Origin: Pseudomonadota bacterium
Lineage (GTDB): Bacteria; Pseudomonadota; Alphaproteobacteria; Rhizobiales; JACESI01
NCBI GenBank assembly: GCA_039181265.1
Contig: JBCDCU010000002.1
Span: 1-63,317, forward strand
Length of the DNA: 63,317 nucleotides
Direction of reading: 5' to 3'
The position numbers and the translations under genes are program-made. The first letter of the stretch is position 1. The number at the start of each line of letters is the position of its first letter. Shown here piece by piece: positions 1 to 27,375 of the stretch. Under the pieces are notes generated by a model that searched no databases, was not told where the DNA came from, and saw only the letters and a list, made by a program, of their open reading frames with translations.

Positions 1-1874
1 AGGAAGATGTTGCCGCCGCCATTCGCGATGCGATCGACATCCGCAATGACGAAGCGCGCGGTCGTGACATCAATGCCGAAATCGATAGCCGTCTTGACGA
101 TCGCCGGATCGAGTTTCGAGAACAGCGCCAGAGCAATATCAATTCCTTGCGCGAAACGGTCGACAGGCTCGAAAATGAATCGATCCCGAGATCCCAAAGA
201 GAGATACGTGATGCGACACGCAATCTGGAAAGGGAAAGGGAACGGCTGGCGGAGATCGACCGGCAAATCGAGCAGAATGAAGCTGCCAAAGATGCTGCGT
301 CCGCAGACGAACTCCAGCCTTTCTTCGATAGGGAACTCGCACTGGACGCGGATAGGCGGCGCCAGGACAACGCTGTCAGTGATGCCGGCTTCCGGCTGAG
401 GGATGCCGAGCAGGACCTCGCTGATCAGCAGGAAGCCGTTGAAAGGATATCGAACCAGATCCGGGAAGACCGGGACGCGATTTCCGATGAAAATTTCGAT
501 AAAACCTTCAACAATGCCTTGTCGAATGCCCGTGAGATCTCACGGGGAGAAGCGCTCGCCGAGCGGGTGCAGGACAATCTGGCCGCTTTGTTCTTCCGAC
601 AATTGGGGGGCGAAGACCTCTCAGCGCGCGCCAGACAGCTTCTGGATCAGCGTTTCGACCTCCTGGATCGGATAGACGAGAAAGAGGCAAAGCTTTCGCA
701 GTGTCTCGCCGAGAACGGCCAGGCGTCATTGGAGAGGGATCGTTTCCAACCTGAACACCGGACTATTCGCACGGCTTTTGTGAACCCGGCACGGTCAAGA
801 AACGCTGCGTTCTCAGTGCTGGACCGCAAACAGAAAACGGCTGTCGAAAGGCGTCAGACGGGCTTTGACGCGCGTTTCAATGCTGCTGCCCGGGACCACG
901 ACGACGCGCAATCCATAGAAGCGCTTGCCTTCGGACCACGCAGAATAACAAGCCACAACGGCGTGACGGCAATCTCGGAACGCGCCGTCAACGCCCGCTT
1001 TGATCTGCGCGAATGGCGGAGGGATCAAGAGCGTCGCTATGGTCAGGGCGCAAGCCTTGGCGAGCGCGTCAATCCCGGCGCGGAAGACGGGCGTCCGATC
1101 ATCGATCTGCCCGGTTTCTTCGGCGATGCGCGGTTCAACTTTTTCGGATCATCCAACATCACCTTTGGCGAAAATGATGGCGTCGGTCAGGACAGTTTCA
1201 GCTACGCCGTTTCGGGAGGCTTCAGCTATCTTGTGCTGCCAAGGCTCAATATCGGACTAGCCGGGCGGTATCAGGAAGCAGATGTCGATAGCGCGATTGC
1301 CGAGATTGACGCAGACACTTGGGGCATTGCCGCATTCGCACAAGGTGAGCTTCCTGTCGGCGCGAAGGCGGTCTATCTCGAAGGGATTGTTGCCTATAGC
1401 CGGTCTGACCTCGATAGCCTCTTCAACAATCTCGGCGTCATTACGACCGCAGACAGCATCACCGAAGCGTTTTCAAGTCAGGTGCGCGCATCGACGAGCT
1501 TCGAGATCGAAAAAATCTCGGTTTCACCGTTCCTGTCGCTCTCCTACATTTATACCGATCAGGCGAGTTTCTTCCTCTCCGACGGTCAGTTCGCTCCAGG
1601 CGCGGTCAATGATCAGGTAACGTTCAGTTCCGGTGCCTCGCTATCAAGTTCCTTCTTTTTGACGGATACAGAGATTGAGCTCAGCCCGAGCCTCGGTCTT
1701 GGTGCCTTCGGGACGGTGACGGATGGCGGCACGGTCGGTTTGTCGGCGAATGGTAGCCTGGGTTTCCGGTCAAAGCGGGGTATCGGCGGCGGCCTTGGGC
1801 TTGGCTTTTCCGGCCTGACGGGCGGCACCCGAAACCTCTCCTTAAGCGGTAATATTTCAATTCCGCTTAACTGA
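1..1874 (+). CDS. Autotransporter-type outer-membrane protein, 5' end outside the window (charged coiled-coil-like passenger plus C-terminal beta-barrel domain)
   Basis: Frame 3 is open from nt 3, and the listed start at 147 is only an internal TTG, so the gene begins upstream of the window. The last ~280 aa show the alternating hydrophobic beta-strand pattern of autotransporter beta-domains (FSYAVSGGFSYLVLPRLNIGLAGRYQEADVDS...GLGFSGLTGG...). The upstream part is rich in E/R/D/Q heptad-like sequence. Confidence 0.7.
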   Translation, partial: EDVAAAIRDAIDIRNDEARGRDINAEIDSRLDDRRIEFREQRQSNINSLRETVDRLENESIPRSQREIRDATRNLERERERLAEIDRQIEQNEAAKDAASADELQPFFDRELALDADRRRQDNAVSDAGFRLRDAEQDLADQQEAVERISNQIREDRDAISDENFDKTFNNALSNAREISRGEALAERVQDNLAALFFRQLGGEDLSARARQLLDQRFDLLDRIDEKEAKLSQCLAENGQASLERDRFQPEHRTIRTAFVNPARSRNAAFSVLDRKQKTAVERRQTGFDARFNAAARDHDDAQSIEALAFGPRRITSHNGVTAISERAVNARFDLREWRRDQERRYGQGASLGERVNPGAEDGRPIIDLPGFFGDARFNFFGSSNITFGENDGVGQDSFSYAVSGGFSYLVLPRLNIGLAGRYQEADVDSAIAEIDADTWGIAAFAQGELPVGAKAVYLEGIVAYSRSDLDSLFNNLGVITTADSITEAFSSQVRASTSFEIEKISVSPFLSLSYIYTDQASFFLSDGQFAPGAVNDQVTFSSGASLSSSFFLTDTEIELSPSLGLGAFGTVTDGGTVGLSANGSLGFRSKRGIGGGLGLGFSGLTGGTRNLSLSGNISIPLN

Positions 1875-2077
1875 GGAAGAGGGGCGTTTCCCGGAAGATG
1901 GGTCATGGAAGAAACCGGGGTGGCGGGTGAGGCTAGTCCGGTTTCATGCGTGCAAGGTGCACTGAAGTAAGTTTGAGCCGCGCCGTGTAATAAACACCCT
2001 CCTGTTGTCCGATCCCGGTTTGCGTGGCACGGTGGCAGCCGACCATTCCCCTGATCGAGGAGGATAAGGGGCTCCCC

Positions 2078-4171
2078 ATGCTGCATTTCCGTCTTATCGC
2101 CGTCATCCTGATTGTTGTTGCCGGATCATCACCGGCCTTTTCCAAGATCATTCCGGAAGCTGCCATCAAGTCCGTGGTTTCCGTTCTGCCGGTCTGGCCA
2201 AACCGGCCGCAAGGCAACGGTTCAGGCCGAAGGCCGAATGCGCCGGAGGGAAGCGGCGTTGTCATTGATGCGAGCGGTGTCATCGCGACGGCCTGGCATG
2301 TGATTGCCCCGGCGCGGCGCATTGATGTGCGCCTTTATGACGGGCGTGTCCTTCCAGCAGAGCTCATCGGCCATGATGAGCGCAGCGACATCGCGCTTTT
2401 GAAAATCGACGGCCCTCTGATCCCGTTCGACTATGCGGAGCCACCGGAACTCTCGTCGGACGTCTGCGCGGTCGGAAATGCTTTCGGGCTTGATCTCACG
2501 GTGACGTGCGGCGTTGTCTCCGCGATCAATGTTGCCAATGCCGGGTTCAATCCGGTGGAAGACTTCATCCAGACGGATGCGGCGGCAAATCCCGGAACCT
2601 CCGGCGGGGCCCTCATTGATGGAGAGGGCAAACTTGTCGGCATGGTCTCTGCGATCTTCGCGTCAGGCGCGGACACGAATATCGGGATTAATTTTGCCGT
2701 ATCGGCCCGTCTTCTGGATCGCGTCGCGCGCGATCTCCAGGCAACCGGCAGCGTCGATTATGTCGATGCGGGATGGCAGCTCGCGCGTTTGCGTGGACAA
2801 ATGGCGGCCCGGATTGCCGGTGCGCTTGTTCAGGATGTTGCGGCAGGAGGTGTTGCAGAAGAGAGCGGCATTCTCGCCGGTGATGTGATCTCCAGGGTGA
2901 ATGGCCGCTTGATCAGGCGACCGCAAGATGTCCGCTCCGAGCTTGCCGTCATCCGGCAAGGCGAAACGGCAGATGTCCAGATTTTTCGTGGCGGGCGGAG
3001 AATTTCCGCAAGCTTGACCTTCGGCACGGCAGAGGAAAGCCCCGACAGCGATGTGCCCGCTCCTGCAGACGAAGGGGAGACGCAAGCCGAACGCTCAACA
3101 GATCCCGATTGTCCGTATCCGGAAGCCGTTTGCGCGACCAGACAGGCGGTCTTCCCGGTGGAAAGCTTTGATCCGATTGCAAGTGCCGTTCGGATCGCAC
3201 CGGATCTTCTGATCACCAACCGCCATGTCGTCGGTGACCGCAAGAGCGCGAACGTCATCACGCCGTCCGGGCCAATCGAGGCGGATGTGATCGCATCCTC
3301 CTATCGCGGGGATTTGGCCCTCTTGCGGGTCTTGGGCCTGCCTGAGGATGGCGTTGTTCTGAGGCCTGACACCGAACAGGATTATGATTACACAACGGGC
3401 ACCTTTTACGCCGTCGGTGCCGATGTGGCGCGCCGCGAAATTCGGGTGTTTGAGCCGGGCGAAACCATCATTCCGCCTTCAGATGACGTGCCGTTTGCAA
3501 GGCACCATGTCACATCGCGTATGCAGCCCGGCGTGAGCGGCGGGGCGCTTGTCAATGAGAGAGGCGAACTCGTGGGGATAGCCGTCGGTGGCGGGGAGGG
3601 GCGCTACGAGGCGCTGCCGCTTCCCCAGGTGAAGCGCCTTCTGGACGGTCAGGACGACACGCGGGCTGCGGCCATTCAGGCGGACCTTGGGCGGTCCTAT
3701 GTCCTGTGTGCAGCGGCCCTTGATGCCGCCCGCGAAACACCGAGAGGGCGCCCGCATGATCCCGGTCTGGTCGACGCCATGCGGGATACCTGCCTTGCCG
3801 CTGAAAACCCCGGACAGATGATTGATGCTGGCCGGATGCTCGGAATTGGTCGCGCCACCGATGAAGCGATCCGGCTTCATGAAGCTGTTGTGGCGCGCAC
3901 GCCGAACTCGATCAACGCCCGCCTGTCACTCCTTGTTTCGCTGCAATTGGGCGGTCGGTTCCCGGAAATGCTACCCCATGCAAGCTGGATCATGGATATT
4001 CTCGATGACGACCCGCAGGCCCTGAGGTTTGCCATTCAATCCGGCGTCTGGGGCGGTGATCCGGACCTCGCAGAACGGGCTTACAGTAAGTTGCTGGAAG
4101 CGGATCCACGGCAGGCGCAGGCCGCCCGCCGCTTCATCGATAATGCCCCGCCAGCGCCGCCGCGCCGGTGA
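2078..4171 (+). CDS. Secreted trypsin-like (S1C/HtrA-type) serine protease with two protease domains, one PDZ domain and a C-terminal helical-repeat (TPR-like) tail
   Basis: The ATG at 2078 is preceded by GAGGAGGA (2057-2064) and followed by a signal peptide (MLHFRLIAVILIVVAGSSPAFS). Domain 1 has H (TAWHV), D (SDIALLKI) and S (NPGTSGGAL). A PDZ-like segment follows (GILAGDVISRVNG). Domain 2 has H (TNRHV), D (GDLALLRV) and S (QPGVSGGAL). The listed GTG start at 2024 is less likely. Confidence 0.8.
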   Translation: MLHFRLIAVILIVVAGSSPAFSKIIPEAAIKSVVSVLPVWPNRPQGNGSGRRPNAPEGSGVVIDASGVIATAWHVIAPARRIDVRLYDGRVLPAELIGHDERSDIALLKIDGPLIPFDYAEPPELSSDVCAVGNAFGLDLTVTCGVVSAINVANAGFNPVEDFIQTDAAANPGTSGGALIDGEGKLVGMVSAIFASGADTNIGINFAVSARLLDRVARDLQATGSVDYVDAGWQLARLRGQMAARIAGALVQDVAAGGVAEESGILAGDVISRVNGRLIRRPQDVRSELAVIRQGETADVQIFRGGRRISASLTFGTAEESPDSDVPAPADEGETQAERSTDPDCPYPEAVCATRQAVFPVESFDPIASAVRIAPDLLITNRHVVGDRKSANVITPSGPIEADVIASSYRGDLALLRVLGLPEDGVVLRPDTEQDYDYTTGTFYAVGADVARREIRVFEPGETIIPPSDDVPFARHHVTSRMQPGVSGGALVNERGELVGIAVGGGEGRYEALPLPQVKRLLDGQDDTRAAAIQADLGRSYVLCAAALDAARETPRGRPHDPGLVDAMRDTCLAAENPGQMIDAGRMLGIGRATDEAIRLHEAVVARTPNSINARLSLLVSLQLGGRFPEMLPHASWIMDILDDDPQALRFAIQSGVWGGDPDLAERAYSKLLEADPRQAQAARRFIDNAPPAPPRR

Positions 4172-4202
4172 GGATCTCGCGCTTAACAGGGACGGTTTGC
4201 CG

Positions 4203-5516
4203 CTAGTCGCGGTCCGGATCGAGGATCCAGCCGACTGCAACCAAGCCCGGTTTCCGAGGGTCGGCCGCGCGTTTAAAAATCGCTGACTTCAGATCTGCCG
4301 TCGAAAGATCCGGGTTCTTTTCCAATAGTCGGGCAGCGAGGGCAGCGATCCTGGGAACCGCATAGCTGGTGCCCGATGCCCGTCCTTCCGATCCGCGAAA
4401 ATCGACAACTGGCTGGTTTTCGGCTGGCACCATGAGGTCAACGCTGCTCGCGCCCCAGTTGGAGCCGTCGGCAAGGTGACCGAAGGCATCGGATGAGGTC
4501 ACCACAATCATATTCTCAAGCGGCAAGGCGGCGGGCCACAGGAGATCCGCATCGATGTTACGGCCATCATTGCCTGCCGAGACAATCGCAAGCATGTGCG
4601 GGCGCTCCTGCATGGCCGCTTTAAACGCAATCCAGTCGGTTTCCCTACGACTTCCAAGCGGCATGGATAAAATCCTTGCGCCTGATTGATCGGCCCGCGC
4701 GACGAGATCCGCCATGCGGGTCATATCCGGTCTTGGATAGCGAAAGGGAATGAGGGCAGCGTTCGGGGCTTCGCGGGCGACAATGGAAGCGACCGGCGTT
4801 CCATGGCGCACCGGCTGAAAGACGTTGCGCGCCGTATCCCCGTCATAGGGAAGATCATCAAGATCCCAGAAATCATAACCGAGCGGGATGCCTGAGGAAT
4901 CGCGGGCGAGGCGGTTTCTGAAAAAGGGGAGATCATAGGCAAGGCCGCTATCGACGAGTGCCACGCGCGCGCCGCCGGGATCGCGTCCTGCGGGCCAGGA
5001 GGCCTGATAGGTCTCGGTCCACATGACCTCATCAAGGTCGGCAGACAATTGCTCCAGCCTCATGTTTTCATCGTCTTCGCGCACAATGCGGCGCGCCGAT
5101 CTCACGGTGCAGGCTCCGTCGGTTTGGGCCTGCATGACGGGCAGTAACTCGTTTCCATTTTCCGGCGCGCGAAAAAGGTCTGCGCTGAACCTGCGGAGCG
5201 CGCCATTCACCCGCGTATAGACGAGCCGCAGTTCATGACCGTCCGGTAGTGCGAAGATGAATTCCGATCTCTCGACGGGACGCCCCGCAGGCGATTGCTC
5301 GGAGTTGAGATACCAGGCACCCGGCAAGTGCGTCTGGAGGGAAAGGCCGTCGGTGTCCTCTGCCGCACAGGCGTTTTCGATTGCCATGCGCACCCAGTCT
5401 TCGGGGTTGGCTGACTGGCTTTCGGCAAAGGATGCGAAGGGAACATAAGCGCTCGCAAGGAAAACGATCGCAGCGAGTGATCGCCATCGGGGAAACGTCG
5501 AGCGTGGTTTGCGCAT
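4203..5516 (-). CDS. Secreted S8 (subtilisin-family) serine peptidase
   Basis: The catalytic triad motifs are present: D (VALVDSGLAYD), H (HGTPVASIV) and S (SGTSYAVPRIAALAA). The ATG at 5516-5514 gives MRKPRSTFPRWRSLAAIVFLASAYVPFASFA, which is a signal peptide. The listed TTG at 5525 adds 3 codons. Confidence 0.85.
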   Translation of the reverse strand: MRKPRSTFPRWRSLAAIVFLASAYVPFASFAESQSANPEDWVRMAIENACAAEDTDGLSLQTHLPGAWYLNSEQSPAGRPVERSEFIFALPDGHELRLVYTRVNGALRRFSADLFRAPENGNELLPVMQAQTDGACTVRSARRIVREDDENMRLEQLSADLDEVMWTETYQASWPAGRDPGGARVALVDSGLAYDLPFFRNRLARDSSGIPLGYDFWDLDDLPYDGDTARNVFQPVRHGTPVASIVAREAPNAALIPFRYPRPDMTRMADLVARADQSGARILSMPLGSRRETDWIAFKAAMQERPHMLAIVSAGNDGRNIDADLLWPAALPLENMIVVTSSDAFGHLADGSNWGASSVDLMVPAENQPVVDFRGSEGRASGTSYAVPRIAALAARLLEKNPDLSTADLKSAIFKRAADPRKPGLVAVGWILDPDRD

Positions 5517-5587
5517 GAAAGACAATGCCTTTCTTTAAATCGAACAGGGGCGACTTCACCCCAAAGCACGGTGTCAGTCAAAGGCCG
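5494..5587. repeat. Direct repeat copy A (94 bp): first 23 nt of the S8 peptidase CDS plus 71 nt of its upstream region
   Basis: It aligns without gaps to 10418-10511, with 88/94 identical by hand alignment (mismatches at repeat positions 8, 14, 31, 40, 75 and 83). Confidence 0.9.
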
Positions 5588-5868
5588 AGCTGTGGGTCGG
5601 GCATAATGCCATGGTCGGATTTCCTCTGGATTAGGAAACTATGCCGTGGTGGCGCGTGCCCGTAAGAAAAGCTGCCACTGGGGGAGGGCAAGCACAAAGC
5701 CTGGTCCCGGCGTTTATTGGTTTGTCGGGACGAGCCGCGCGACCATTTCATGCGGGCTCCATGCCAGTGGTCGTTGCGGGCCATAACCGTATTATTGGCT
5801 ACTAGAATAAGGTTCATGCAGCACTAGCTCCAAGGTCGTTCTGAATCGATTTTGTAGAGTGTTTTTCC

Positions 5869-8800
5869 ATGAATAATGATCTGGTTGAAAAATCCCGTGC
5901 CCATGAATCTGCTGGAATGTTGCTTGGTGAAACGCCGAAAATTATCCTTGGCGTAAGCGAGAAAATCGCAGAAACGCTGGCAAATGTAGGCGTCAGAACA
6001 GTGCTGGACCTCGCGGAAAGTGAGCTTTTTAATCAGCTTGAATTTCTCCGCACCAATCCCGATGCCAATTCCTTGGAGCGCAAGCGAACGCTAACGGCGC
6101 TCGTCGGATCCGAAACGGCGAGCGATCTTTCGTTGTTGACGCCGAATGATCTTGTTCGCCTGGATCCTGGGGTGCGTACTGAACTGGGTGCAGCGTTTCC
6201 GACATTGGATGCAATGGCGACCTGGCCACCTTTTGCTCGGGCGCGAAGGCTGCGAGAGGGCGCGAAGCCGCAGCCATTACCGCAGGAAACGACGTCCACC
6301 AAAATAAATGAAAGAGAAGGGATTCCTGATGAGCTCGTTCCGGTTGCGCGACGGTATGCGACCCAAAAGACATCGGTAACGCGCAATTTCTTAGACCGCT
6401 TTGGCGCGCCGGGTAGTGATTTGATCCTGGACCCTTCGCCCCTTACGCGGTTGTCTCTGACGGATGCGAGAACGGCCCAATTCGACGTCCCGGCGCTCGG
6501 CGCAAGACTGACGATGGAACACACACTCACCCCTGAGGGTATTTCGCTTGGCCGCCTTCTGCATTCTCTTGCACTGGCGCCTGGGGAAAGCACCAATGTG
6601 GCTATTGTCGATTTTACACGCGCCGTTGGAACCTCAGCAGAGGAAAATATCAATCAGACAGAGGCGTTGAGCGCTGAAACCGAGCAAAATCAGGAGGCGA
6701 ACAGCGATACCAGTGTTGATATCTCGGAAAACCAAAGCGGACGCACCGACATCGACAGCACAGTCGATACCGAGAGCGGATCGGTCTCAGCAGGCGCCGG
6801 TGTTGGCGGTGGAGGAGGCGGGGTTCTGGCAGGGGTCGGCGTCGGCGGCACAAGAACCAATGCCACAACCACGACGGACACCTCTGTCGTTACGAGCACT
6901 CTTGGAACGCGCAACGTCGATGCGCAGGCATCCGAAGAGCTTCTCCGCCAGACGCAGCAGGCAAGTGCTTCGGAACGCGATCGCCGGGCCAGCTTGATTA
7001 CTGAAGTATCCGAGGCGGAAGGGTCCCGGGCGGAAACCCGAAATGTGACCAACTACAATCACATGCACACGCTTTCGGTCCACTATTATGAAGTTGTGCA
7101 GATTCATGAGGTCTCAGTCCGCGCGGTCAGGGCGGAGGCGCTGCTCTTTACTCCTGTCGCGCCGATTGATTTCTCAGACCCCGCCCTGATTGCCGAGCAT
7201 CGTGAAGCCTTGGCCGCGGCAGCACCCGATGAGCGTACGCGGCGTCTGATCCTGGGCGTCGACCGAATGATTCCGTTGGAACTCTTGACGAAGATCGGCA
7301 AGTTTCGTGGATCGCCTTTCCGGAGCTACGGCCCGGCAGATGCAGCCCTGCTCGGCATTACAGGCTCTTACGAAACGGGACGCTACAGTGTCCCACCGGA
7401 CCTTGAGATCAACTTCATTGAGTTTGACGCGATTGGCCCAGAAAATGCGCCTTTCATGACACCCAAACAGGTACTTTTCGAATTGGAAGGTGGCATTGTC
7501 GTTGACATTCCGATACCTGAGCAACCTAGTGGCTTTTTCGTAGGTGCACCGGTGGATCCGCCCATTAAGGTGGAGGCTTTGCGCCGCGTTAGGTTTGTCT
7601 ATTTCGCACAACCGCGTCCATCCGAACCCGTTGCATCGTTCCAACTCTTCATTAAACGCGGCGATATTACGGCAAGCGTCTCTTTCCGGGCGGACACAAC
7701 CGGCCACCAGAATACCGAGACAATCCTTGGAGCGAAAGACGATACCAGTCGTCAGCAGGTGATCTCCACCCTTCAGCGGGATCGGATGCGCTATTCCATC
7801 GCGGTGTATCAGGCGCTTGGCCCCCAGACGCTGGTTGCGATGTTTGCGGGCAAGACGTTCGCGGGTCTTGATCTTAGCAGCGCGATTGAACCGCGTATTG
7901 TCGCGACGCATGGAAACCTGCTCGGCTTTCCGCTGCGGATCGACGAGAATGGGGATGGTGCTCTTTCTGCCTGGTGGAAAGACTGGCTGGAGCGCAATTT
8001 CCATCCTGAGCGCGTTTCAACCGACTATGTTGCAGCGCCAACAGGCGGTGTTCACGCCGAGGGAATATTGGGTCGGGCGAACACGGCTGAACGGTTCGAT
8101 CTCACCCGTTTCTGGGATTGGCAGGATTCGCCAATACCGAACCTGCCACCGCGCATTTCGGATGTCTCGGCAGAGAGCCGCGCGTCGGTTGGCGGTGCAC
8201 CGACGCCCGGTTCGCTCGATCCAAGCGTTGTCAATATTCAGAACCTGCCGGCGATGACCGATCCGGTGAATGCACAAGCCGCGCTCAATGCTGCGCTCGC
8301 ATCTACCCCGTTTCGCGATATGAGTGGCCTTGCGGCAGCCGATGCCGTGAGCCGCCAGGGGATTGGATCAACAGTGGATCTGGCACAGACCACCGCACGG
8401 GAATCGGCTTCGCTTGCAAGAACAGCGTTATCACAGGTGCTCGCTGCCGGGGCGACAGGTCCAAAGGCTTCGACGAACTCTGATGTTGGCGCCCACATTG
8501 CGTATCAGGAAGATCGCGAAAAGGCACGTGGTGGCATCACGGAAGAACCGGGCGCACCGGACCGCACCAGTGAGAACACGTCCGATCCAACATCAGCAGC
8601 CGATAGAACCAAGACTGCTGAAGCAGCGCGCGCACTTATTCATGATGGTATCGACGAAGGCAAAAAGGCAGCGGACGACGAAGCAAAGAAGAAATCGGGC
8701 AAGTCCAGCAAACCGGCACCTGATCTTGGTCATGTGGTCTGGCTTTCCGATACGCCGGGGGCGCAGGAATTGTTGCTTTACAATTTCCCGCTGGGTGACG

Positions 8801-10278
8801 CAAATCAGCCTTTGCACCCCAGGCATATCGAAGCGTTGCGCAAAATTTCCGTTCAGATTGGCGGGATTGACGATATTGCTGTGGTTGAGGGGCGGGCAAG
8901 TACGACCGTGACAAAATCCGATGAAGCGGGTCGTGACAATAGCAGCCTGTCCATCACGAGAATGGAAAATGTTTGGGTTGCGTTGATGGAGTTTGCTCTT
9001 GTGCCGGCGCCCTTCAGTTCAGTCACCAAGCAACAAGCCTATGCTGCGACATCTCCCATTCGGCCTAAATACCCTGCACTTGCCAAAATACCGACCGGAC
9101 CGGGGGATGAGGATGCCGTGGAACGAAGCGTTCTCATCCGTCTAAGCCGTCAGGTCGACCCGCGCATCAAACCGGAACCAACACCCGAAGTTCCGGGTAT
9201 CTCGACCTTTGGACATGTGGCGATGATCGAGGAAATCGATGGGGATGCGAATATCATCAGCCAGCAAAGCGGCGGTATCTTTTTGAATGCCAATGACACA
9301 AGTCGGGAAATTGTAAAGGGTGACAAGATCGGCGAAGTACGCGGTATCGGCCAGATCAACGCAAAGAAGGTCGAAGGAAATACGCTGATCGCAAATGGAG
9401 GCGGGTTGAACATCAACCTCATTTTCCCGGGTGTCGACGCTAAACCGGGGGAGAAAGTTGAAGCTAAAGCCGAAGCACAACCGACCAAACAATGGGTGAT
9501 AGAGATCCGCCGCCCATGCGCGAGCGGCCTGTCGCCGGTTTCCGCCTTTGATGATGTCGTCCGCTTGATCAAGGCCTTACAACAGGTCGGGGGTGTCGCC
9601 CCGAGTGTGGAACTCGAGATTTCGGTGCCGGAAGATCTGGGCACCGCAACGGTTGTGGACTTCAACCCAAGTAAGCTGATCTCCACGGCAGCAGGCGAAC
9701 TGGCTGAGGCAATCTCTCAAAGCGAAATCTTGAAGCCACGATTGTCAGGGTTAGTATTTGGCCGCACACAAGTCGATGCGGTGATTAGACCCGTATATGA
9801 AAACGGTATTCCCGACGGGTTTGTTGCGCCACTTTTGAATCTCACCGGCGAGGGTATGAGCTACTGGCCGCGCGAGGCAAATGATGCTGAGACGACGGAT
9901 ATCCTGAAACGCTTCGACTATGAGACTGATACGCCTTTGCGTTTGTCGGACTGGAGCGAAACGACCAAGATCACGGATGTTAAACTGAGCTTTTCAAAAA
10001 GTACCGTTGGCGATGACATTGCAAGTGCTGCGGCATTCGTGGTCGAGCTTGCCGAGAAGATCCCCGCGCTTGGCGTGGTTGTGCCGGGGGACCTCATCTC
10101 CGAACTCGGCAATCTTGCGACAAACGCTTCGGCTCTTGCGCAACTGGCCGGCGGCGGAGAAAAAATGACATTCTCCGCTGAAGGGCAGCCGGAGCGGGAG
10201 TTCTCGAGTTTTATAAGCGCTTCCAGTGCCGCGACGTTCCGGTTGGAGGAAGGGCTGTTCACCAAAGCGAAGAAATAA
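5869..10278 (+). CDS. Giant hypothetical protein (1469 aa) with a glycine-zipper-like low-complexity core and an internal OmpA-like peptidoglycan-binding module; family not recognised
   Basis: This is a single uninterrupted 4.4-kb ORF with no N-terminal signal peptide. The N-terminus has helix-hairpin-helix-like segments (GVSEKIAETLANVGVRTVLDLAESELF). There are conserved-looking blocks LHSLALAPGESTNVAIVDFTR (6568-6622) and NVTNYNHMHTLSVHYYEVVQ (7051-7098). They flank an S/T/D/E/N-rich stretch containing SAGAGVGGGGGGVLAGVGVGG (6781-6850). No SD is obvious at 5869, so the start is uncertain by a few codons. Confidence 0.8.
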   Translation: MNNDLVEKSRAHESAGMLLGETPKIILGVSEKIAETLANVGVRTVLDLAESELFNQLEFLRTNPDANSLERKRTLTALVGSETASDLSLLTPNDLVRLDPGVRTELGAAFPTLDAMATWPPFARARRLREGAKPQPLPQETTSTKINEREGIPDELVPVARRYATQKTSVTRNFLDRFGAPGSDLILDPSPLTRLSLTDARTAQFDVPALGARLTMEHTLTPEGISLGRLLHSLALAPGESTNVAIVDFTRAVGTSAEENINQTEALSAETEQNQEANSDTSVDISENQSGRTDIDSTVDTESGSVSAGAGVGGGGGGVLAGVGVGGTRTNATTTTDTSVVTSTLGTRNVDAQASEELLRQTQQASASERDRRASLITEVSEAEGSRAETRNVTNYNHMHTLSVHYYEVVQIHEVSVRAVRAEALLFTPVAPIDFSDPALIAEHREALAAAAPDERTRRLILGVDRMIPLELLTKIGKFRGSPFRSYGPADAALLGITGSYETGRYSVPPDLEINFIEFDAIGPENAPFMTPKQVLFELEGGIVVDIPIPEQPSGFFVGAPVDPPIKVEALRRVRFVYFAQPRPSEPVASFQLFIKRGDITASVSFRADTTGHQNTETILGAKDDTSRQQVISTLQRDRMRYSIAVYQALGPQTLVAMFAGKTFAGLDLSSAIEPRIVATHGNLLGFPLRIDENGDGALSAWWKDWLERNFHPERVSTDYVAAPTGGVHAEGILGRANTAERFDLTRFWDWQDSPIPNLPPRISDVSAESRASVGGAPTPGSLDPSVVNIQNLPAMTDPVNAQAALNAALASTPFRDMSGLAAADAVSRQGIGSTVDLAQTTARESASLARTALSQVLAAGATGPKASTNSDVGAHIAYQEDREKARGGITEEPGAPDRTSENTSDPTSAADRTKTAEAARALIHDGIDEGKKAADDEAKKKSGKSSKPAPDLGHVVWLSDTPGAQELLLYNFPLGDANQPLHPRHIEALRKISVQIGGIDDIAVVEGRASTTVTKSDEAGRDNSSLSITRMENVWVALMEFALVPAPFSSVTKQQAYAATSPIRPKYPALAKIPTGPGDEDAVERSVLIRLSRQVDPRIKPEPTPEVPGISTFGHVAMIEEIDGDANIISQQSGGIFLNANDTSREIVKGDKIGEVRGIGQINAKKVEGNTLIANGGGLNINLIFPGVDAKPGEKVEAKAEAQPTKQWVIEIRRPCASGLSPVSAFDDVVRLIKALQQVGGVAPSVELEISVPEDLGTATVVDFNPSKLISTAAGELAEAISQSEILKPRLSGLVFGRTQVDAVIRPVYENGIPDGFVAPLLNLTGEGMSYWPREANDAETTDILKRFDYETDTPLRLSDWSETTKITDVKLSFSKSTVGDDIASAAAFVVELAEKIPALGVVVPGDLISELGNLATNASALAQLAGGGEKMTFSAEGQPEREFSSFISASSAATFRLEEGLFTKAKK
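8769..9150 (+). other. OmpA-like (peptidoglycan-binding) module inside the giant ORF
   Basis: The segment LLYNFPLGDANQPLHPRHIEALRKISVQIGGIDDIAVVEGRASTTVTKSDEAGRDNSSLSITRMENVWVALMEF...ERSVLIRL follows the OmpA_C pattern. That pattern is F-x-fd-sa-L, then L..ia..l, then i-V-x-GhtD, then N..LS..RA..V, then NRRVEI. The assignment rests on motif recall only. Confidence 0.55.
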
Positions 10279-10417
10279 CGCGGCCACAGCTTTAAAGAGG
10301 GTGCGGGATTGATCTTGCAAACCGGCTTCGCGTTTTCCGGAAACCAACCATTGGGCGGGTCGACCCGGCGGAACGTGTATGGAGGAGTCCCCCATTCATA
10401 ATGCGCCACAATCACGG

Positions 10418-10511
10418 AACGTCGGGCGTGCTTTGCGCATGAAAGACCATGCCTTTGTTTAAATCGAACAGGGGCGACTTCACCCCAAAGCGCGGTGTCC
10501 GTCAAAGGCCG
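10418..10511. repeat. Direct repeat copy B (94 bp): relic copy of the S8 promoter and start region, between the giant ORF and betC
   Basis: It is 88/94 identical to 5494-5587. It keeps the ATG (10440-10438, minus strand) and MRKARPTF, but the frame stops after 14 codons (stop at 10398-10396). Confidence 0.9.
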
Positions 10512-10529
10512 TGGGGAGGGCGCTCTGTT

Positions 10530-12026
10530 CTATTCACCCCTTGGAAATCTTTGCGCCTCTTCCAAAACGTTCAAATCCATATGGTTGCGCATATAGCGTT
10601 CACTGGCTTTTTGCAGCGGCTGAAAATCCCAGGGGTAATAGTCGCCATTGCGCAGGGCCTCATAGACAACCCAGCGCCGCGCCTGACTTTCGCGCACTTG
10701 AGCGTCGAACGCCTTTAGATCCCAGCGCTTGCCGGCTTCTTCTTCAAACATAGCCAGCGTGTCGGCATGGGTGGGATCTTTCGCCAGATCGTTGAGTTCA
10801 TTGGGGTCGGCTTCAAGATCGAACATTTGCGAGGGATCGAGCGCGCATTTGGTGAACTTGTAGCGCCGGTCACGCAGCGACACCATCGGGGCGTAGCTTG
10901 CTTCTGCCGCATATTCCATGGCAACGGCTGCCCGCTCGCCGCCAGCGGCAATTGGCGCAAGGTCAACGCCTTCCGTCCAGGGCGCGATCTCATCGAGCGA
11001 GACACCAGCAAGGGCGGCCAGCGTCGGCGTCACATCGATTGTGGAGACAGGGGTCTCGATTACTCCCGGTTCAAAGCCGTTCGCCGAGATCATCAGCGGG
11101 ACACGGGCAGAGCCCTCATAAAAGCACATCTTGTACCAGAGACCGCGCTCGCCAAGCATATCGCCATGGTCGGAGACAAACAGGATTGCAGCCTCCTGCC
11201 GGGTTGCTTCAAGCGCCTCCATAACCTCACCGATCTTGTCGTCGAGATAGGAGATGTTGGCGAAATAGGCCCTGCGGGAGCGTTTGATGTCCTCTTCCGT
11301 AATCTCGAAATTTTCATGGTCATTCGCATCAAGGATGCGCTTCGAGTGTGGATCCAGATCGGCGTAGCCAATTGCCGCGACGTCCGGCAGAAGATGAGGG
11401 CAGTCCTCATAAAGATCCCAGTATTTGCGGCGGGCGACATAGGGATCGTGCGGATGGGTGAAGCTGACAGTCAAAGCGCATGGCCGCGGGTCGTGGCCCC
11501 GCGCGAGATCATATATCTTGCGGGTGGCGTGATAGGCGACCTCGTCGTCATATTCCATCTGATTGGTGATTTCCGCGACGCCCGATCCGGTGACGGACCC
11601 CATATTGTGGTACCACCAGTCGATGCGCTCACCGGGATTGCGGTAATCCGGCGTCCAGCCGAAGTCCGGCGGATCGATATCGGTCGTGAAGCGCTCCTCA
11701 AATCCGTGCAGCTGATCCGGCCCGACAAAGTGCATTTTGCCTGAAAGCGCGGTGTAATAGCCAGCGCGGCGCAGATGATGGGCATAGGTGGGAATGTCGG
11801 AGGAAAACTCCGCCGCATTGTCATAGACCCGCGTGCGGCTCGGCAATTGACCGGACATGAAACTCGCGCGGCCCGGTGCACACAGGGGTGAGGCGGTATA
11901 GGCATTCTTGAAACGCGTGGAGCGCGCCGCGAGCTTCTTAAGGTTAGGAACATGGAGCCAGTCTGCCGGACCGTCTGGAAACAGCGTCCCGTTCAACTGA
12001 TCGACCATAAAAATCAGAATGTTCAT
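10530..12026 (-). CDS. betC: Choline-sulfatase
   Basis: The N-terminus is MNILIFMVDQLNG and the sulfatase C-x-P-x-R motif is present (SPLCAPGRASFMSG). The ATG at 12026 is preceded by GGAGGG. The listed start at 12164 adds 46 unsupported codons. Confidence 0.85.
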   Translation of the reverse strand: MNILIFMVDQLNGTLFPDGPADWLHVPNLKKLAARSTRFKNAYTASPLCAPGRASFMSGQLPSRTRVYDNAAEFSSDIPTYAHHLRRAGYYTALSGKMHFVGPDQLHGFEERFTTDIDPPDFGWTPDYRNPGERIDWWYHNMGSVTGSGVAEITNQMEYDDEVAYHATRKIYDLARGHDPRPCALTVSFTHPHDPYVARRKYWDLYEDCPHLLPDVAAIGYADLDPHSKRILDANDHENFEITEEDIKRSRRAYFANISYLDDKIGEVMEALEATRQEAAILFVSDHGDMLGERGLWYKMCFYEGSARVPLMISANGFEPGVIETPVSTIDVTPTLAALAGVSLDEIAPWTEGVDLAPIAAGGERAAVAMEYAAEASYAPMVSLRDRRYKFTKCALDPSQMFDLEADPNELNDLAKDPTHADTLAMFEEEAGKRWDLKAFDAQVRESQARRWVVYEALRNGDYYPWDFQPLQKASERYMRNHMDLNVLEEAQRFPRGE

Positions 12027-12215
12027 GCCGACCCTCCAGCTCTGTTTCTTCACCTTCGCATGCCGAGAGAATAGCGCCTTGGAACTGGTTCTCGGCAATC
12101 TTTTTTGTCGGTAGATTAAGGTGTATTTGAAAGCCCCGCAGTCTCCCCGCTCAGCGCGAGGCAATATCGCAATCCGGGTCGGCGCGCGTATGCTGCCGAT
12201 GACCTAACAGCACCT

Positions 12216-12611
12216 TCATTTTTGTCCCTCTCGCGGGGCAGCGGTTTCTTGTGCGCGCATCAGAAGGTCGTCGTTCTGATGGGCCCAGTCACAAAGCCAT
12301 TGAAGCGGTTCGTGAAACCGTCGGCCATCTTCTGTCAAGGCGTATTCGGTATGGGGCGGCACCACCGGATAAACGGTTCGCTCGACGAGCCCGTCCCTTT
12401 CAAGGCGTCTTAGAACTTGCGTCAGCATTTTCTTTGATATGTCGGGGATGCATCGGTGGAGTTGGCTGAATCTCAGGGTTCCCTGAGAAAGCGCATGAAG
12501 AACGATCGGCGTCCATGCATCGGCAATAACAGTGAAGAGGCGCCGCACCGGGTAATCACGCGGGTATATCTGTTCTCCGGTCTCGGTCACATCAATCTCC
12601 ATGGTTACCAA
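12216..12611 (-). CDS. HxlR-family winged-helix transcriptional regulator
   Basis: The sequence contains WTPIVLHALSQGTLRFSQLHRCIPDISKKMLTQVLRRLERDGLVERTVYPVVPPHTEYALTEDG, which is typical of HxlR/DUF24 proteins. Confidence 0.85.
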   Translation of the reverse strand: MVTMEIDVTETGEQIYPRDYPVRRLFTVIADAWTPIVLHALSQGTLRFSQLHRCIPDISKKMLTQVLRRLERDGLVERTVYPVVPPHTEYALTEDGRRFHEPLQWLCDWAHQNDDLLMRAQETAAPREGQK

Positions 12612-12699
12612 AGGGTGCCTACTTTACTAGGGGAGACCATAACGATACGCAATGGGTGATATGTCTGGTGCAAGAGTACCAAAAACGGGGAACATTGAG

Positions 12700-13668
12700 A
12701 TGAACAGACGAGAAGTCCTGACAGCTAGCGCTATCACGATCGGAGCAATCGCTTTGCCAGGCGTCTTGCGCGCCCAAAATGCAGTGAAAGGGAGCCTGAC
12801 CAAGCAGGTCCCGGCCATATGGCGGCATCGTATCGGTGACCGCGTGATGACGGTTGTCTCGGATGGCTATGTTCCTTTTGAGGAATGGCATTCACCCAAC
12901 ATTGATCCAGCCGACCGCGCGGCGCTGCTCTCAGAACATTTTCTTCCGACAGACATCTATAAGGGGGCGATTAACTGTTTCGTGGTCGATGATGGAAACG
13001 GGTCGGTCGTCCTGGTCGACGCTGGTGCCGGCCGGCTTCTCGGGCCCACGTCTGGTCATCTAATTCCGAACCTTGCGGCGAGCGGATACGGCCCGGAGGA
13101 CATTACAGCAATTGTGGCGACACACCTTCATCCTGATCATGTCGGCGGCATCTTTGATCAAGGCGGACAGGCCGTCTTTCCAAATGCAGAACTTCTCGTG
13201 AGTGAAGCCGATCATGCATTCTGGACAGATGACGGGATGAGATCGGCAGCCCCAGAGAAGGCCCGTTTCTTATGGGATATCGCCGGTGCAGCCCTCTCGA
13301 CTTACAAAGGCCGGGTCCGGCGTTTCACTGGCGAGACCGAGGTGTTGCCGGGCCTAACGTCGATACCTCTTCCTGGGCACACGCCGGGCCAAAGCGGCGT
13401 CGTGATCTCAAGCGGTGGAGACCAATTGCTTATCTGGGCGGATTTGGTCCATTTCGCACCGCTGCAACTCAAGCGACCAGACGTTGTGTTTGCATTCGAT
13501 GTCGACCCAAGCGAGGCGGTCGAGACCAGAAAGCGAACGTTCGATAGGGCCGCAAGCGAGCGCTTGCAAATTGCTGGCATGCATATGCCGTTTCCAGGCA
13601 CCGGTCACATCGTTCGTGACGGTGACGCATACACCTTCCTGCCCGAACGTTGGGGGTATGATCTGTAA
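12700..13668 (+). CDS. Tat-exported MBL-fold metallo-hydrolase (lactonase-like)
   Basis: The N-terminus MNRREVLTASAITIGAIALPGVLRAQ is a twin-arginine signal. The HxHxDH motif is present (THLHPDHVGG). Confidence 0.85.
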   Translation: MNRREVLTASAITIGAIALPGVLRAQNAVKGSLTKQVPAIWRHRIGDRVMTVVSDGYVPFEEWHSPNIDPADRAALLSEHFLPTDIYKGAINCFVVDDGNGSVVLVDAGAGRLLGPTSGHLIPNLAASGYGPEDITAIVATHLHPDHVGGIFDQGGQAVFPNAELLVSEADHAFWTDDGMRSAAPEKARFLWDIAGAALSTYKGRVRRFTGETEVLPGLTSIPLPGHTPGQSGVVISSGGDQLLIWADLVHFAPLQLKRPDVVFAFDVDPSEAVETRKRTFDRAASERLQIAGMHMPFPGTGHIVRDGDAYTFLPERWGYDL

Positions 13669-13833
13669 GAAGAGATGAGGGGACGGCGTTAAGAACGCTG
13701 AAAAGCCATCTCTGCGCCGACAAATTCGCCGGGCAGGGGTGCCCCCGCGCGCCATGCGCCGTGACCTGTCGAAAAGTTTGCTATGGTCCCTGCACCAATC
13801 GGCCCTTCGTTCAGCCACTGCCTGAGTAGTCAT

Positions 13834-15443: not shown

Positions 15444-15533
15444 CAGGGAAGGCATGAAGTGACGGGCCCGCTCGCAATCCGGGCTTTGCGGCAGAGAGGC
15501 TGAGGGTCGCGAAAAGCGGGCCTGTTTAGCCGC

Positions 15534-16166
15534 TTACTTACAAGCCCCTTCATCATAGCAGCTTATCAGATCATCCAACATGTCGGGGCTGAGCTTGAGA
15601 TAGGTCGGGCAGTACGAAGTTGTTAATTCATGTACTTTCCAGTCAACACGAGATCTTAAGATACCAAGTACGTCAATTTCGGTCTCAGGCAGGACGTCAA
15701 CAATTCCTTGATAATTGGATGAAATTGAAACCCGCGCGTTTATAGCGTCAACTGAAAAGGGAACAAATTTTCCGTCAATGAATCTGTAGCCTTGAAAGCT
15801 GTACGCCCGGCCGTAAGTGTACTCAATCCTCTGAGGCATCTCGACGTCTTTGGATGGAGGCCAGAATTTTGAGCGAATATCTTCGAGTTGCTCTTCATGG
15901 AGGAAAGGAGCCGAAGAATTTTTAGAAAACCGACCAACGACAACAAACTGCCCTTCTTGTCTGGAAGCGCCCGCAATCACCTCCGCAAATTTTCTGGTTT
16001 GCTTGCGCAAGAGTTCAGTCTTGGAGAGAGTGTCTTCGCCGTTCTTGACATAAAAACTCTCTACATGGTCGCAGTCCCATGCTTGTGCATCTGTCGCAAT
16101 AAAGAATGAAACAAGTATCAGAGACAGCACTCTTGCCGGTGCGCGGAGCATATGCATTTGGTCCAA
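15534..16166 (-). CDS. Hypothetical secreted protein
   Basis: A signal peptide is present (MLRAPARVLSLILVSFFIATDAQA; the likely start is the internal M at 16151). I see no recognisable domain. By eye it is AT-richer than its neighbours. Confidence 0.6.
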   Translation of the reverse strand: MDQMHMLRAPARVLSLILVSFFIATDAQAWDCDHVESFYVKNGEDTLSKTELLRKQTRKFAEVIAGASRQEGQFVVVGRFSKNSSAPFLHEEQLEDIRSKFWPPSKDVEMPQRIEYTYGRAYSFQGYRFIDGKFVPFSVDAINARVSISSNYQGIVDVLPETEIDVLGILRSRVDWKVHELTTSYCPTYLKLSPDMLDDLISCYDEGACK

Positions 16167-16404
16167 TAATCGAGTTTTGTTTATCCAAAGACCGTTAGCA
16201 GACCTTGTCGTTCAATGCGATGCTCCAAATCATGGGTTCACTCCAACCATCCTCGGAGTTCTGGTTATTGCTGATGGACAGCAAAGTGGCGCTAACGACC
16301 TGCCCAAAACGCCCGCGCAAATGGTGCAAATCGTTGCTCTCCGTTTCCGGGTAAGGCAAATGCCTCAAATGCTTGGTTCCTTGCCACCTGCTATCAACGC
16401 CTCC

Positions 16405-23532: not shown

Positions 23533-25125
23533 CTAACCCGCGAGATCAGCCCAGCTTAAATCGTATTTCTCAAGGTACTTCCTGAGCCGGTCGGCATCGT
23601 TGCGGCTCGTCTTGGTGGCGCGCGACGCTGAAAACAAAGTTCGACCGGCAGCGCTCAGGGATTTGCTCGCCCGGCAGATCCGGATCACAAGAGCAAGCTG
23701 CACCTTGTCGAAAGGATCGACGTTCTCTGCTTTCGTCCCAAGATAGCGCCGGGCAAGTTTGTCGTCCTTATCGTCTTCCGCGCTTTCCCACTGGTGCTTT
23801 AGAAACGCGATCTCGTGTTCAACCATCTGGGCGGTGATGCGGGCGCGGGGTGCGAGCGTACAAAGCCTCTGCAGAGATGCGCCGAGGTCGCGGAAATTGC
23901 CGAGCCATCTGGTGGCGGGGTCGGTCGCAAAGCGAATGTAGATCTGAAGCGCATCGGCATTAAAGCCGACACGATTGCCGAGCATGCGTTCGGCACGACG
24001 CAATTCGAATTCGATATTGGGCGCGATATCCTCGCGCCGGTCGCATAGCGACGGGAGCTCGAACGTCCATAGGTTCAGGCGGGCGAATAAATCGGCGCGG
24101 AACTTTCCTCTCGCAACAAGCGTGCTGAGGCTGCGGTTTGCGCCGGCTATCAGTTGAAACTTGCTGGTGATTTCATGGTCGGAGCCGAGCGGAAAGAATT
24201 TACCGGTTTCAATGGCGTGCAGGATCATCGCCTGCTCATCGAGGCCGAGCTCGTCGATCTCATCGAGGAACAAGACCCCGCCATCGGCCTCTCTCAAGAG
24301 ACCCCGGCGATCGTTCGGTGCGCCTGCCATCGCGCCGCGCCTGTGGCCGAACAAGGTCGACATGGCCCGTTCGCCTTTGAGCGTCGAGCAGTTCACATGG
24401 ACAAATCGGCCTTTCACCCGGCGGCGCTGGAGTTTGAGTTCATAAATCCGCTCGGCAAGTTCCGACTTTCCGGTTCCCGTAGAACCGAGGAGAAGAAGCG
24501 GTGCATCGCTTGTGGTTGAGACAAGTTCGATGCGCTCGATCAAAGCGTTGAAGCCTGCGTTCTTCGTGTCGATGCCGGATTTTAAGAGCGCGGTGTAATC
24601 ATCCGTCAGTTGATCGAAACGCTGCTGCAGCGCGTTATATTTGGAAAGGTCCAGATCGACGATATTGATCTCGCCGGTGATATCCTCATCCTCTTCCTGA
24701 CCCTTGATCCTGCGGGGCGGCGAGGTCTGCAACAACCGCGCGGGGATATGCCGGGATTCCGTCAACAGGAACCAGCAGATCTGCGCCACATGCGTGCCGG
24801 TCGTGAGATGAACGTGATATTCCTCGCGGTCCTCGTCGAAGCCATAGCCGCGGGCAAAATCGAACAAAGCGCCGTAGACTTCCTGGAAATCCCAGGGATC
24901 GCGCAGGTCGATCCGCTGCAACAAGACTTCGGTTGCCGCCTGATCTTCTTCGATCTCCCGCTTCAGGGAATGCGCGAGCTGGGAGAATTTCTGGTCGTAG
25001 AGGAGCTCCAGACGTTCGACTGGAAAGTCGACATGCTGAGTGAGCGCAATGGAGGGCCGCCAGCGGCGTTTTTTGCCAGCGTCCAGTTGCGTGCCCATAA
25101 ACCCTATAACGACGTTCTTCTTCAT
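23533..25125 (-). CDS. rtcR: RtcR, a CARF-domain AAA+ enhancer-binding-type regulator of the RNA-repair operon
   Basis: It is collinear with my recollection of E. coli RtcR: VIGFMGTQLD...RWRPSIAL, HLTTGTHVAQICWFLLTESRHIPARLLQTSPP, and DLDLSKYNALQQRF. The Walker A motif is GSTGTGKS. The C-terminus reads CRASKSLSAAGRTLF...NDADRLRKYL. Confidence 0.9.
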   Translation of the reverse strand: MKKNVVIGFMGTQLDAGKKRRWRPSIALTQHVDFPVERLELLYDQKFSQLAHSLKREIEEDQAATEVLLQRIDLRDPWDFQEVYGALFDFARGYGFDEDREEYHVHLTTGTHVAQICWFLLTESRHIPARLLQTSPPRRIKGQEEDEDITGEINIVDLDLSKYNALQQRFDQLTDDYTALLKSGIDTKNAGFNALIERIELVSTTSDAPLLLLGSTGTGKSELAERIYELKLQRRRVKGRFVHVNCSTLKGERAMSTLFGHRRGAMAGAPNDRRGLLREADGGVLFLDEIDELGLDEQAMILHAIETGKFFPLGSDHEITSKFQLIAGANRSLSTLVARGKFRADLFARLNLWTFELPSLCDRREDIAPNIEFELRRAERMLGNRVGFNADALQIYIRFATDPATRWLGNFRDLGASLQRLCTLAPRARITAQMVEHEIAFLKHQWESAEDDKDDKLARRYLGTKAENVDPFDKVQLALVIRICRASKSLSAAGRTLFSASRATKTSRNDADRLRKYLEKYDLSWADLAG

Positions 25126-25296
25126 GTCCTATCCAATAGAATAAAACTCTATAAAAAAGAATAAGATATTTCGTTTCGATTCTTGTGAAATAAAGAAAAG
25201 GGAAGAAAAACCAATAACTTATTGGATTGCGATTTTTTCTTTTTCCTGATCCCGGTTTCGCCGAAACTCGGGGCGTACAAACGAAGGAACAAGAAA

Positions 25297-26853: not shown

Positions 26854-26911
26854 CGCAACAAGGAACCGGGAGCGGGTCGTGTGATCCGCTCCCAAGTAAG
26901 AAACAGAATTC

Positions 26912-26979: not shown

Positions 26980-27000
26980 CCAACTTGAAAGGGATTCTTT

Positions 27001-27357: not shown

Positions 27358-27375
27358 GGTTTAAGGAAAAGACCA

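Follow-up and report, generated by a model that had tools for sequence, protein, structure and literature searches.

The 63,317-nucleotide stretch of DNA analysed here (the window) carries a 1469-aa open reading frame between an S8 (subtilase) peptidase gene and betC (choline sulfatase), with one copy of a direct repeat on each side of it. Pfam supported both flanking gene identities, and the spacers originally given for the open reading frame at 5869-10278, 281 nt upstream and 139 nt downstream, were correct. The S8 gene and an HtrA-like gene (2024-4171) form a convergent pair in 69 of 80 related loci, and the upstream neighbours of S8 differ among relatives. The features of the locus are as follows:

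4203..5516, minus strand: S8 (subtilase) peptidase, intact, 437 aa
5494..5596, minus strand: repeat copy A, functional, comprising the spacer 3' of the ancestral betC stop, a terminator-like hairpin, the RBS region, the ATG and S8 codons 1-8
5562-5547, minus strand: terminator-like hairpin GGGGTGAAGTCGCCCC with a T-rich tail, in copy A
5597..10417: inserted segment, ~4.82 kb, one gene
5869..10278, plus strand: 1469-aa open reading frame (the cargo), divergent from S8
10396..10440, minus strand: relic S8 start in copy B, with the ATG (10440-10438) and 13 further codons, MRKARPTFRDCGAL, then a stop
10418..10520, minus strand: repeat copy B, decaying, 90% identity (core 88/94), 9-18 nt 3' of the betC stop
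10486-10471, minus strand: the same hairpin and T-tract in copy B, ~45 nt 3' of the betC stop
10530..12026, minus strand: betC (choline sulfatase), stop codon 10530-10532

By repeat search and MAFFT alignment, 5494-5596 and 10418-10520 form a gapless 103-nt direct repeat, with copy A lying 4924 bp from copy B. Within it, the 94-nt core (5494-5587 and 10418-10511) is identical at 88 of 94 positions, as originally noted, and the longest identical stretch is 34 nt. The edge of the repeat on the S8-coding side is sharp (5494 and 10418), the opposite edge is fuzzy (5587-5604 and 10511-10524), and extension past 103 nt was no better than in shuffled sequences. A 53-nt degenerate core pattern had exactly two matches in the window, with none expected from 100 shuffles, and none in metagenome and viral collections.

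Copy A was confirmed to hold the start of the S8 gene (ATG at 5516-5514, followed by codons for MRKPRSTF), and the S8 orthologue in the closest relative is called from the same ATG. Copy B likewise keeps the ATG in a frame of 14 codons, with its 94-nt core 18 nt from the betC stop codon, as had been described; its similarity to S8 stops after codon 8, and within those codons it has the amino-acid changes P4A and S6P. The hairpin in copy B is probably the betC terminator. The repeat had also been taken to duplicate the S8 promoter, a claim that was not confirmed: no sigma-70-type consensus was found in the repeat, where a TTGAC box is the only promoter-like piece conserved with the closest relative.

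Among the protein database and GTDB representative genomes, the only close relative is the MAG P01_G01_bin.29, locus L001 (L001/L009), and no other relative above 71% S8 identity was found there. The window and L001 are collinear on both flanks with ~89% DNA identity. L001 has the same flanking genes and a single spacer copy adjoining S8, without the giant gene. This spacer is preceded directly by what is left of the betC 3' end, a degraded version of its final ~10 codons and stop (EKTRGFPRGE-stop versus EEAQRFPRGE-stop in the real gene; 0 of 3000 shuffles). The distance from the betC stop to the S8 ATG is 89 nt in both genomes, and copy B with the betC end is collinear over 134 nt with the L001 spacer and betC relic (E=2e-27). 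Because the single L001 spacer is contiguous with both the betC relic and S8, the betC-spacer-S8 order is ancestral, as originally proposed, and the betC 3' end together with copy B reproduces the ancestral betC-spacer junction.

No empty-site allele was found, the site in the sole close relative being occupied by a different cassette that encodes a TonB-dependent receptor, FecR and an ECF sigma factor. As for the proposed search for relatives with betC directly next to S8 and a single 94-mer, L001 does have one copy, but betC and S8 are separated by this cassette. Metagenome scans with the repeat core and the S8-start pattern returned no matches. The L001 cassette is bracketed by its own 37-nt duplication, from the last 33 nt of betC to stop+4, which does not overlap the segment duplicated in the window (about stop+8 to S8 codon 8). 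Since the junctions in L001 differ from those in the window, the two insertion events are independent. On its betC side, the L001 cassette ends in a truncated relic of a TonB-receptor C-terminus, which indicates that the insert was a fragment with an arbitrary end and no defined termini. The two units are alike in length (4924 bp in the window, 4626 bp in L001), both cassettes are antiparallel to the flanking genes, and each has one junction at the same point to within 4 nt, 4-8 nt past the betC stop. Two further indels between the window and L001 have no flanking repeats, and thus the process does not hold for the lineage in general.

Over the 94-nt core, copies A and B differ at 6 positions, compared with 16 between copy A and L001 and 19 between copy B and L001. 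The copies are far closer to each other than to L001, so the duplication appears to postdate the split between the two genomes, unless gene conversion has homogenised the copies. Copy B carries four of the five polarisable changes, two of them amino-acid changes; this is what would be expected of a non-functional copy, although a 4:1 ratio is not significant alone.

The ends of the inserted segment carry neither inverted nor direct repeats belonging to the insert itself (795 of 2000 shuffles score as well for inverted repeats). Neither the insert nor the larger open reading frames of the window include integrase, transposase or gene transfer agent (GTA) genes, and no tRNA was found; the previously noted absence of a transposase, an integrase and terminal inverted repeats thus stands. 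The giant open reading frame has no match in Pfam, NCBIfam, PADLOC or PHROG, and neither a restriction-modification domain nor any other known domain was found in it. Residues 1-860 place the protein in a widespread family of solitary, uncharacterised proteins of ~1000-1500 aa with variable C-termini, and residues ~900-1469 form a rare module with six relatives among 1.84 billion representatives. In the AF2 model of residues 1-880 (pLDDT 69.8), a disordered G/S/T-rich segment is surrounded by very long beta-hairpins, and the top Foldseek matches of this model are pore-forming toxins, weak ones (best E=5e-4, TM<=0.16); a domain-only model of residues 150-480 (pLDDT 60.6) had no match better than E=0.8. 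GC3 is 0.577 for the cargo compared with 0.655 and 0.666 for the flanking genes, and lies within one standard deviation of the window mean. Homologues of the giant gene elsewhere are solitary, in unrelated contexts and without flanking repeats, from which it follows that the duplication is a feature of this insertion event rather than of the gene family. None was found near S8 in the 80 S8 loci.

We consider it likely, on balance, that a single insertion of horizontally acquired DNA, with target duplication, left the two ~100-bp copies behind as its scar. An insert of ~4.8 kb with just the 1469-aa gene would have entered the 89-nt betC-S8 spacer and first S8 codons, duplicating ~100 bp of target from a few nucleotides past the betC stop to S8 codon 8. 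The duplication would have spared both neighbours: copy B leaves betC with its own 3' end and putative terminator, and copy A leaves S8 with its upstream region, RBS and start. Host break repair or illegitimate recombination is the likeliest route we infer. Here two junctions overlapping by ~100 bp could arise when a staggered break is filled in, or from joints on two sister chromatids, with selection keeping only those events that leave both flanking genes intact.

A Campbell-type integration would yield an identical product, such that the arrangement does not discriminate between the two routes. Here, a circle with the giant gene and ~100 bp of S8-upstream homology would integrate by a single RecA-dependent crossover that duplicates the homology, and its donor could be a circularised fragment from a sister strain with the gene already upstream of S8. 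A single crossover always gives direct repeats of the length of the homology, the 34-nt identical stretch is enough for RecA, the unit lengths are alike in both genomes, and the varying upstream neighbours of S8 make a donor with a different neighbour conceivable. However, this account needs a donor in which the cargo already lies beside the spacer, which just defers the question, and no such donor was found among protein-database relatives or the 80 S8 loci. Identity to L001 shows no mosaic step along S8 to the repeat (82-91% per 150 nt), and copies A and B share 14-15 derived states relative to L001, so that the donor would have been nearly the same strain. We therefore regard a circular donor as rather unlikely.

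The betC-S8 spacer might be a recurrent target of element-independent insertion with long, variable target duplications and ordinary, non-restriction-modification cargo, a speculative reading to which we give less credence than to the circular donor. The two cassettes at one site, their similar unit lengths, their shared antiparallel orientation and the near-shared junction all point in this direction. It could rest on delivery of DNA of a fixed size (e.g. GTA-sized fragments), which is then circularised and integrated by short homology, or the gene end could be a specific fragile site. GTA genes, which would match the fixed-size delivery reading, were not found in the insert or the larger open reading frames of the window, and the chance of an accidental shared junction within 4 nt is about 0.2, a rough estimate from two cases.

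That the repeats are the relic of a tandem duplication seems more doubtful again. In this case a ~4.9-kb unit (5494-10417) would have been duplicated and its second copy mostly deleted, leaving ~100 bp beside betC. Such a history better fits the other long direct repeat in the window, at 49942-50209 and 59476-59743. At the locus studied here, the contiguity of copy B and betC matches that of the spacer and betC relic in L001, so both repeat-flank junctions are ancestral, and a tandem duplication would still require a separate insertion of the giant gene and two more events. The 59476-59743 copy of the second repeat is an internal gene fragment.

Site-specific recombination, with the repeats as attL and attR and a tyrosine or serine recombinase acting in trans, is highly improbable. 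Integrative elements do often duplicate tens of base pairs of a gene end and so restore the target gene, and the occupation of one spot by two cassettes might point to a preferred site. Against this, there is no recombinase in the insert or the 63-kb window and no tRNA, the non-overlapping duplicated segments of the window and L001 leave no common att core at the independent insertions, and the L001 insert ends on one side within a gene relic. A classical transposon or IS insertion, with a target duplication of fixed length below ~15 bp, was rejected on account of the ~100-nt duplication and the lack of terminal inverted repeats and a transposase. Least credible of all is a dispersed REP/MITE-like element or a metagenome-assembly artefact: although the repeat contains a hairpin and the window looks like one MAG contig (a single contig of 63,317 bp in the protein clusters), there are only two copies in 63 kb, one in L001 and none in the metagenome and viral collections, one copy is the coding sequence and start of a conserved gene, and copies that differ at 6-10 positions with at most 34 identical nucleotides would, we reason, share too little to mislead a large-k assembler.

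[quoted passage not shown] Known from genome comparison since 2000 and mostly tied to restriction-modification systems, this category has repeats that range from 30 to ~420 bp and can include the ends of genes (PMC2853133; PMC3457768). The cases in PMC2853133 came from a screen for restriction-modification cargo, whose own DNA breakage the authors suspected of being involved. As here, they have target repeats above 30 bp, inserts below 20 kb (4.8 kb in the window) without a transposase or integrase, a repeat found just once in a related genome without the insert (here L001), repeats that may overlap the ends of flanking genes, and variable repeat lengths (46 to ~420 bp in that paper, 37 and ~100 nt here). 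In contrast to those cases, neither cargo here is restriction-modification, one being a giant uncharacterised protein and the other a TonB-receptor/FecR/ECF-sigma operon, our comparison genome lacks a clean empty site, and two different inserts occupy the same ~130-bp target of sister genomes. The window case fits insertion with long target duplication, here with non-restriction-modification cargo. Two unrelated cassettes of this kind in one target, each with its own duplication, argue that the process stems not from the cargo but from host recombination or repair together with selection for intact flanking genes.

Other known systems share parts of this arrangement. The att duplications of integrative islands and prophages are also direct repeats, of tens to hundreds of base pairs, that rebuild an interrupted gene end, but the present locus has no integrase, no core common to both cases, and one insert end in a gene relic. 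Minimal mobile element cassettes are thought to be swapped by homologous recombination in the flanking genes, and are not known for long target duplications. Like the two genomes here, these minimal mobile elements or intergenic replacement hotspots of Neisseria (cited in PMC3787668 and PMC1797815) have alternative whole-gene cassettes without mobility genes between the same conserved genes. Transformation-triggered merodiploidy, in which one incoming DNA pairs with two sister chromatids and yields a duplication, was demonstrated experimentally (Johnston et al. 2013, PMC3784515) and offers a precedent for overlapping junctions, but the duplications there span 100-900 kb between pre-existing repeats and have no foreign insert.

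Insertion with target duplication would account for a 1469-aa orphan gene in an otherwise syntenic chromosome region. It also predicts that the repeats permit loss or amplification of the cassette; their 34-nt identical stretch could serve RecA-dependent excision or amplification.

By repeat search we found a 103-nt direct repeat (5494-5596 and 10418-10520, 90% identical without gaps, spacing 4924) that is the sole long direct repeat within positions 4000-12500. Its 94-nt core is identical at 88/94 positions when the two copies are aligned with MAFFT, and a 53-nt degenerate pattern of that core matched twice in the 63,317-nt window, at these two copies, where chance predicts no match. The repeat was therefore as the original prediction had described it, and the distances claimed there were also correct: 18 nt from the second copy to the betC stop, and 281 and 139 nt of spacer before and after the giant gene. 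The genes of this region are as follows.

147-1874, plus strand: autotransporter (Pfam)
2024-4171, plus strand: HtrA-like trypsin-PDZ protease (Pfam)
4203-5516, minus strand: subtilase, S8 (Pfam)
5869-10278, plus strand: 1469-aa ORF, the giant gene (no match in Pfam, even at E<=10, or in NCBIfam, PADLOC, PHROGs or PDB sequences)
10530-12026, minus strand: choline sulfatase betC, with Sulfatase and Choline_sulf_C domains (Pfam)

Outside this region the window consists of unremarkable alphaproteobacterial chromosomal DNA; its larger ORFs include no integrase, transposase or GTA gene, and it contains no tRNA. Copy A of the repeat (5494-5596) carries on the minus strand the S8 start codon (5516-5514) followed by MRKPRSTF, and the S8 orthologue of the sister genome described below is called from the same ATG. 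Copy B (10418-10520) retains the ATG and then reads MRKARPTFRDCGAL-stop. A 34-nt stretch with a hairpin and T-tract is identical between the copies, and in copy B it is located where the betC terminator would be. The repeat edge is sharp on the S8-coding side and fuzzy on the opposite side (5587-5604 / 10511-10524), with extension past 103 nt on either side no better than shuffled sequence. The 8-mer CATAATGC, common to both insert ends, is not above chance, and Rfam gave no match within or close to the repeat.

When searching 5.8 billion clusters for S8 relatives, we found a sole close one, P0122 (87% identity), from the metagenome-assembled genome P01_G01_bin.29. This relative lies on a 13.3-kb contig, L001 (identical to L009 among the 80 compared S8 loci, L009-L088), which aligns collinearly with the window (~89% DNA identity): the autotransporter, HtrA-like protease and S8 genes are shared on one flank, and the betC, TetR, hydrolase and acetyltransferase genes on the other. 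Between betC and S8, L001 lacks the giant gene and instead has a TonB-dependent receptor/FecR/ECF-sigma operon. The spacer is present there in one copy, adjoining S8, and is preceded directly upstream by a betC relic, 37 nt of the 3' end with the stop codon (EKTRGFPRGE-stop, compared with EEAQRFPRGE-stop in the real gene; none of 3000 shuffles scored equally well). The relic stop and the S8 ATG are 89 nt apart, as are the betC stop and the copy-B ATG of the window, and window positions 10416-10549, comprising copy B and the betC end, are collinear with the relic-spacer stretch (E=2e-27). It follows that both repeat-flank junctions of the window, betC|spacer and spacer|S8, are ancestral. The proposal of an ancestral betC-spacer-S8 order, into which a single-gene cassette was inserted with target duplication, is thus supported by the single spacer, the betC relic and the 89-nt spacing of L001, giving an ancestor of the form betC-89 nt-S8, although a clean empty site was not found. 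Searches for a close relative or empty site returned only distant betC matches (~74%) in the plasmid collection, the same P01_G01_bin.29 among GTDB genomes, and no match in two metagenome DNA scans. The adjacency of betC to S8 is confined to the clade of the window and L001, and S8 relatives at 64-71% identity have other upstream neighbours.

Over the 94 positions, copies A and B differ from each other at 6, A from L001 at 16 and B from L001 at 19, and the two copies have 14-15 derived states in common. The duplication is therefore younger than the divergence of the window and L001 lineages, provided that the copies were not homogenized by gene conversion. With L001 as outgroup, four of the five polarizable changes fall in copy B and one in copy A, those in copy B including one in the ribosome-binding-site region and the amino-acid changes P4A and S6P; the polarity fits a constrained copy A and a decaying copy B, with counts too small for significance.

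The case gains interest from the sister genome, whose betC|S8 site is occupied by a different cassette, bracketed by a long duplication of its own. In L001 (contig JBCDCZ010000113.1) this duplication is 37 nt long (3685-3721 and 8311-8347, 81% identity) and comprises the final 33 nt of betC and 4 nt more. The L001 cassette does not have the junctions of the window insert, and the duplicated segments of the two do not overlap; the insertions are therefore independent and have no att-like core in common. The betC-proximal end of the L001 insert is a C-terminal relic of a further, truncated TonB-dependent receptor (...ETRRFGARAKVTF-stop, ~3786-3950, minus strand), so that this insert was a DNA fragment that ended arbitrarily and not an element whose termini are defined. 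In both genomes the cassette runs antiparallel to its flanking genes, the unit lengths are similar (4924 bp in the window, 4626 bp in L001), and one junction lies 4-8 nt past the betC stop; by a rough estimate, these coincidences are not significant with n=2.

We conclude that the betC|S8 insertion adds a new case, one without restriction-modification cargo, to a known class of rearrangement whose mechanism is unexplained. Described cases have repeats of >30 bp and up to ~420 bp, sometimes overlapping gene ends, and no other mobile element (PMC2853133). A foreign fragment was probably captured by a host-mediated process, in which the two junctions would overlap by ~100 bp, either because a staggered break was filled in or because joints formed on two sister chromatids; experiments have documented interchromatid integration (PMC3784515). 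Where an 89-nt spacer separates two useful genes, the survivors would be those events that duplicated gene ends instead of deleting them. The cargo has a codon third-position GC of 0.577, compared with 0.655 and 0.666 in its neighbours, which is compatible with a foreign origin but lies within the spread of the window.

The main rival is Campbell-type integration, in which a circle with ~100 bp of homology would yield the same product; no donor was found, and a mosaic test for donor-derived DNA gave no identity step along S8. A dispersed repeat is disfavoured as far as testable, with two copies in the window, one in L001 and none in the metagenome and viral scans. Nor does duplication-forming insertion appear to be general in this lineage: 12106-13713 and 15496-16371, further window segments missing from L001, have no flanking direct repeats. 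One of these contains an HxlR regulator and a metallo-beta-lactamase-fold gene, the other a 210-aa orphan ORF of low GC (0.46). We also rejected a self-mobilizing giant-gene family, given that homologues at four loci (from Mesorhizobium, Legionella and metagenomes) are solitary genes with unrelated neighbours and without flanking repeats, so that the duplication is no trait of the cargo family. A transposon was dismissed because the insert lacks terminal inverted repeats.

Residues 1-860 of the giant protein (window 5869-8450) belong to a large uncharacterized family, with at least 424 significant matches among 8000 candidates scored. The ~850-aa N-terminal module, over which there is no Pfam model, is strongly conserved and includes the motifs LALAPGES, NYNHMH..YYEVVQ and RFWNWQDSPIP. 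Among the matches listed, homologues of 909-1507 aa occur in bacteria and haloarchaea; no viral relatives were found. Other members have variable C-termini with OmpA, M15, M23, GH25, LysM or DUF2272 domains, peptidoglycan-binding or peptidoglycan-hydrolase domains among them, suggesting a cell-envelope-directed modular protein. The C-terminal ~570 aa of the giant protein form a rare module with six relatives, none of which has a Pfam domain. An AF2 model of residues 1-880 (mean pLDDT 69.8) combines a helical N-domain and a beta-domain with very long beta-hairpins that surround a disordered G/S/T-rich segment. The top Foldseek matches to this model were weak ones to pore-forming beta-barrel toxins, a resemblance that was not replicated with a domain-only model, leaving a possible pore-forming role as an unconfirmed lead.

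The S8 gene and a ~700-aa trypsin-PDZ HtrA-like gene form a convergent pair in 69 of the 80 marine alphaproteobacterial loci compared. A functional pairing of S8 with the giant gene was rejected, since these 69 keep the HtrA-like partner and a giant-gene homologue occurs in 0/80.

Elsewhere in the window, a second long direct repeat (49942-50209 / 59476-59743; 268 nt, 94%, spacing 9534) is at odds with a simple insertion that duplicated its target. The first copy is inside an intact gene of the ArsC/Spx/MgsR family ('nitrogenase-associated', 49878-50303, plus strand); the second is an internal fragment of that gene, without the N-terminal motif and last ~35 codons, and lies directly against the 3' end of a TonB-like gene (59737-60714, minus strand). 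The arrangement resembles a duplicated gene fragment or the remnant of a tandem duplication of 9.5 kb; no close relative was found for comparison (best homologue 67%). A 58-nt G-rich sequence in three diverged copies (49166-49223, 57151-57208 and 30553-30610; 79% and 60% identity to the reference) may be a short dispersed intergenic repeat. At 23533-28791, genes for RtcR (a sigma-54 activator), a Ro60/TROVE-vWA protein and RtcB are clustered with a YrlA Y-RNA-like sRNA (27002-27135, Rfam 71.6 bits), forming a bacterial Ro-Y RNA-RtcB RNA-repair locus.
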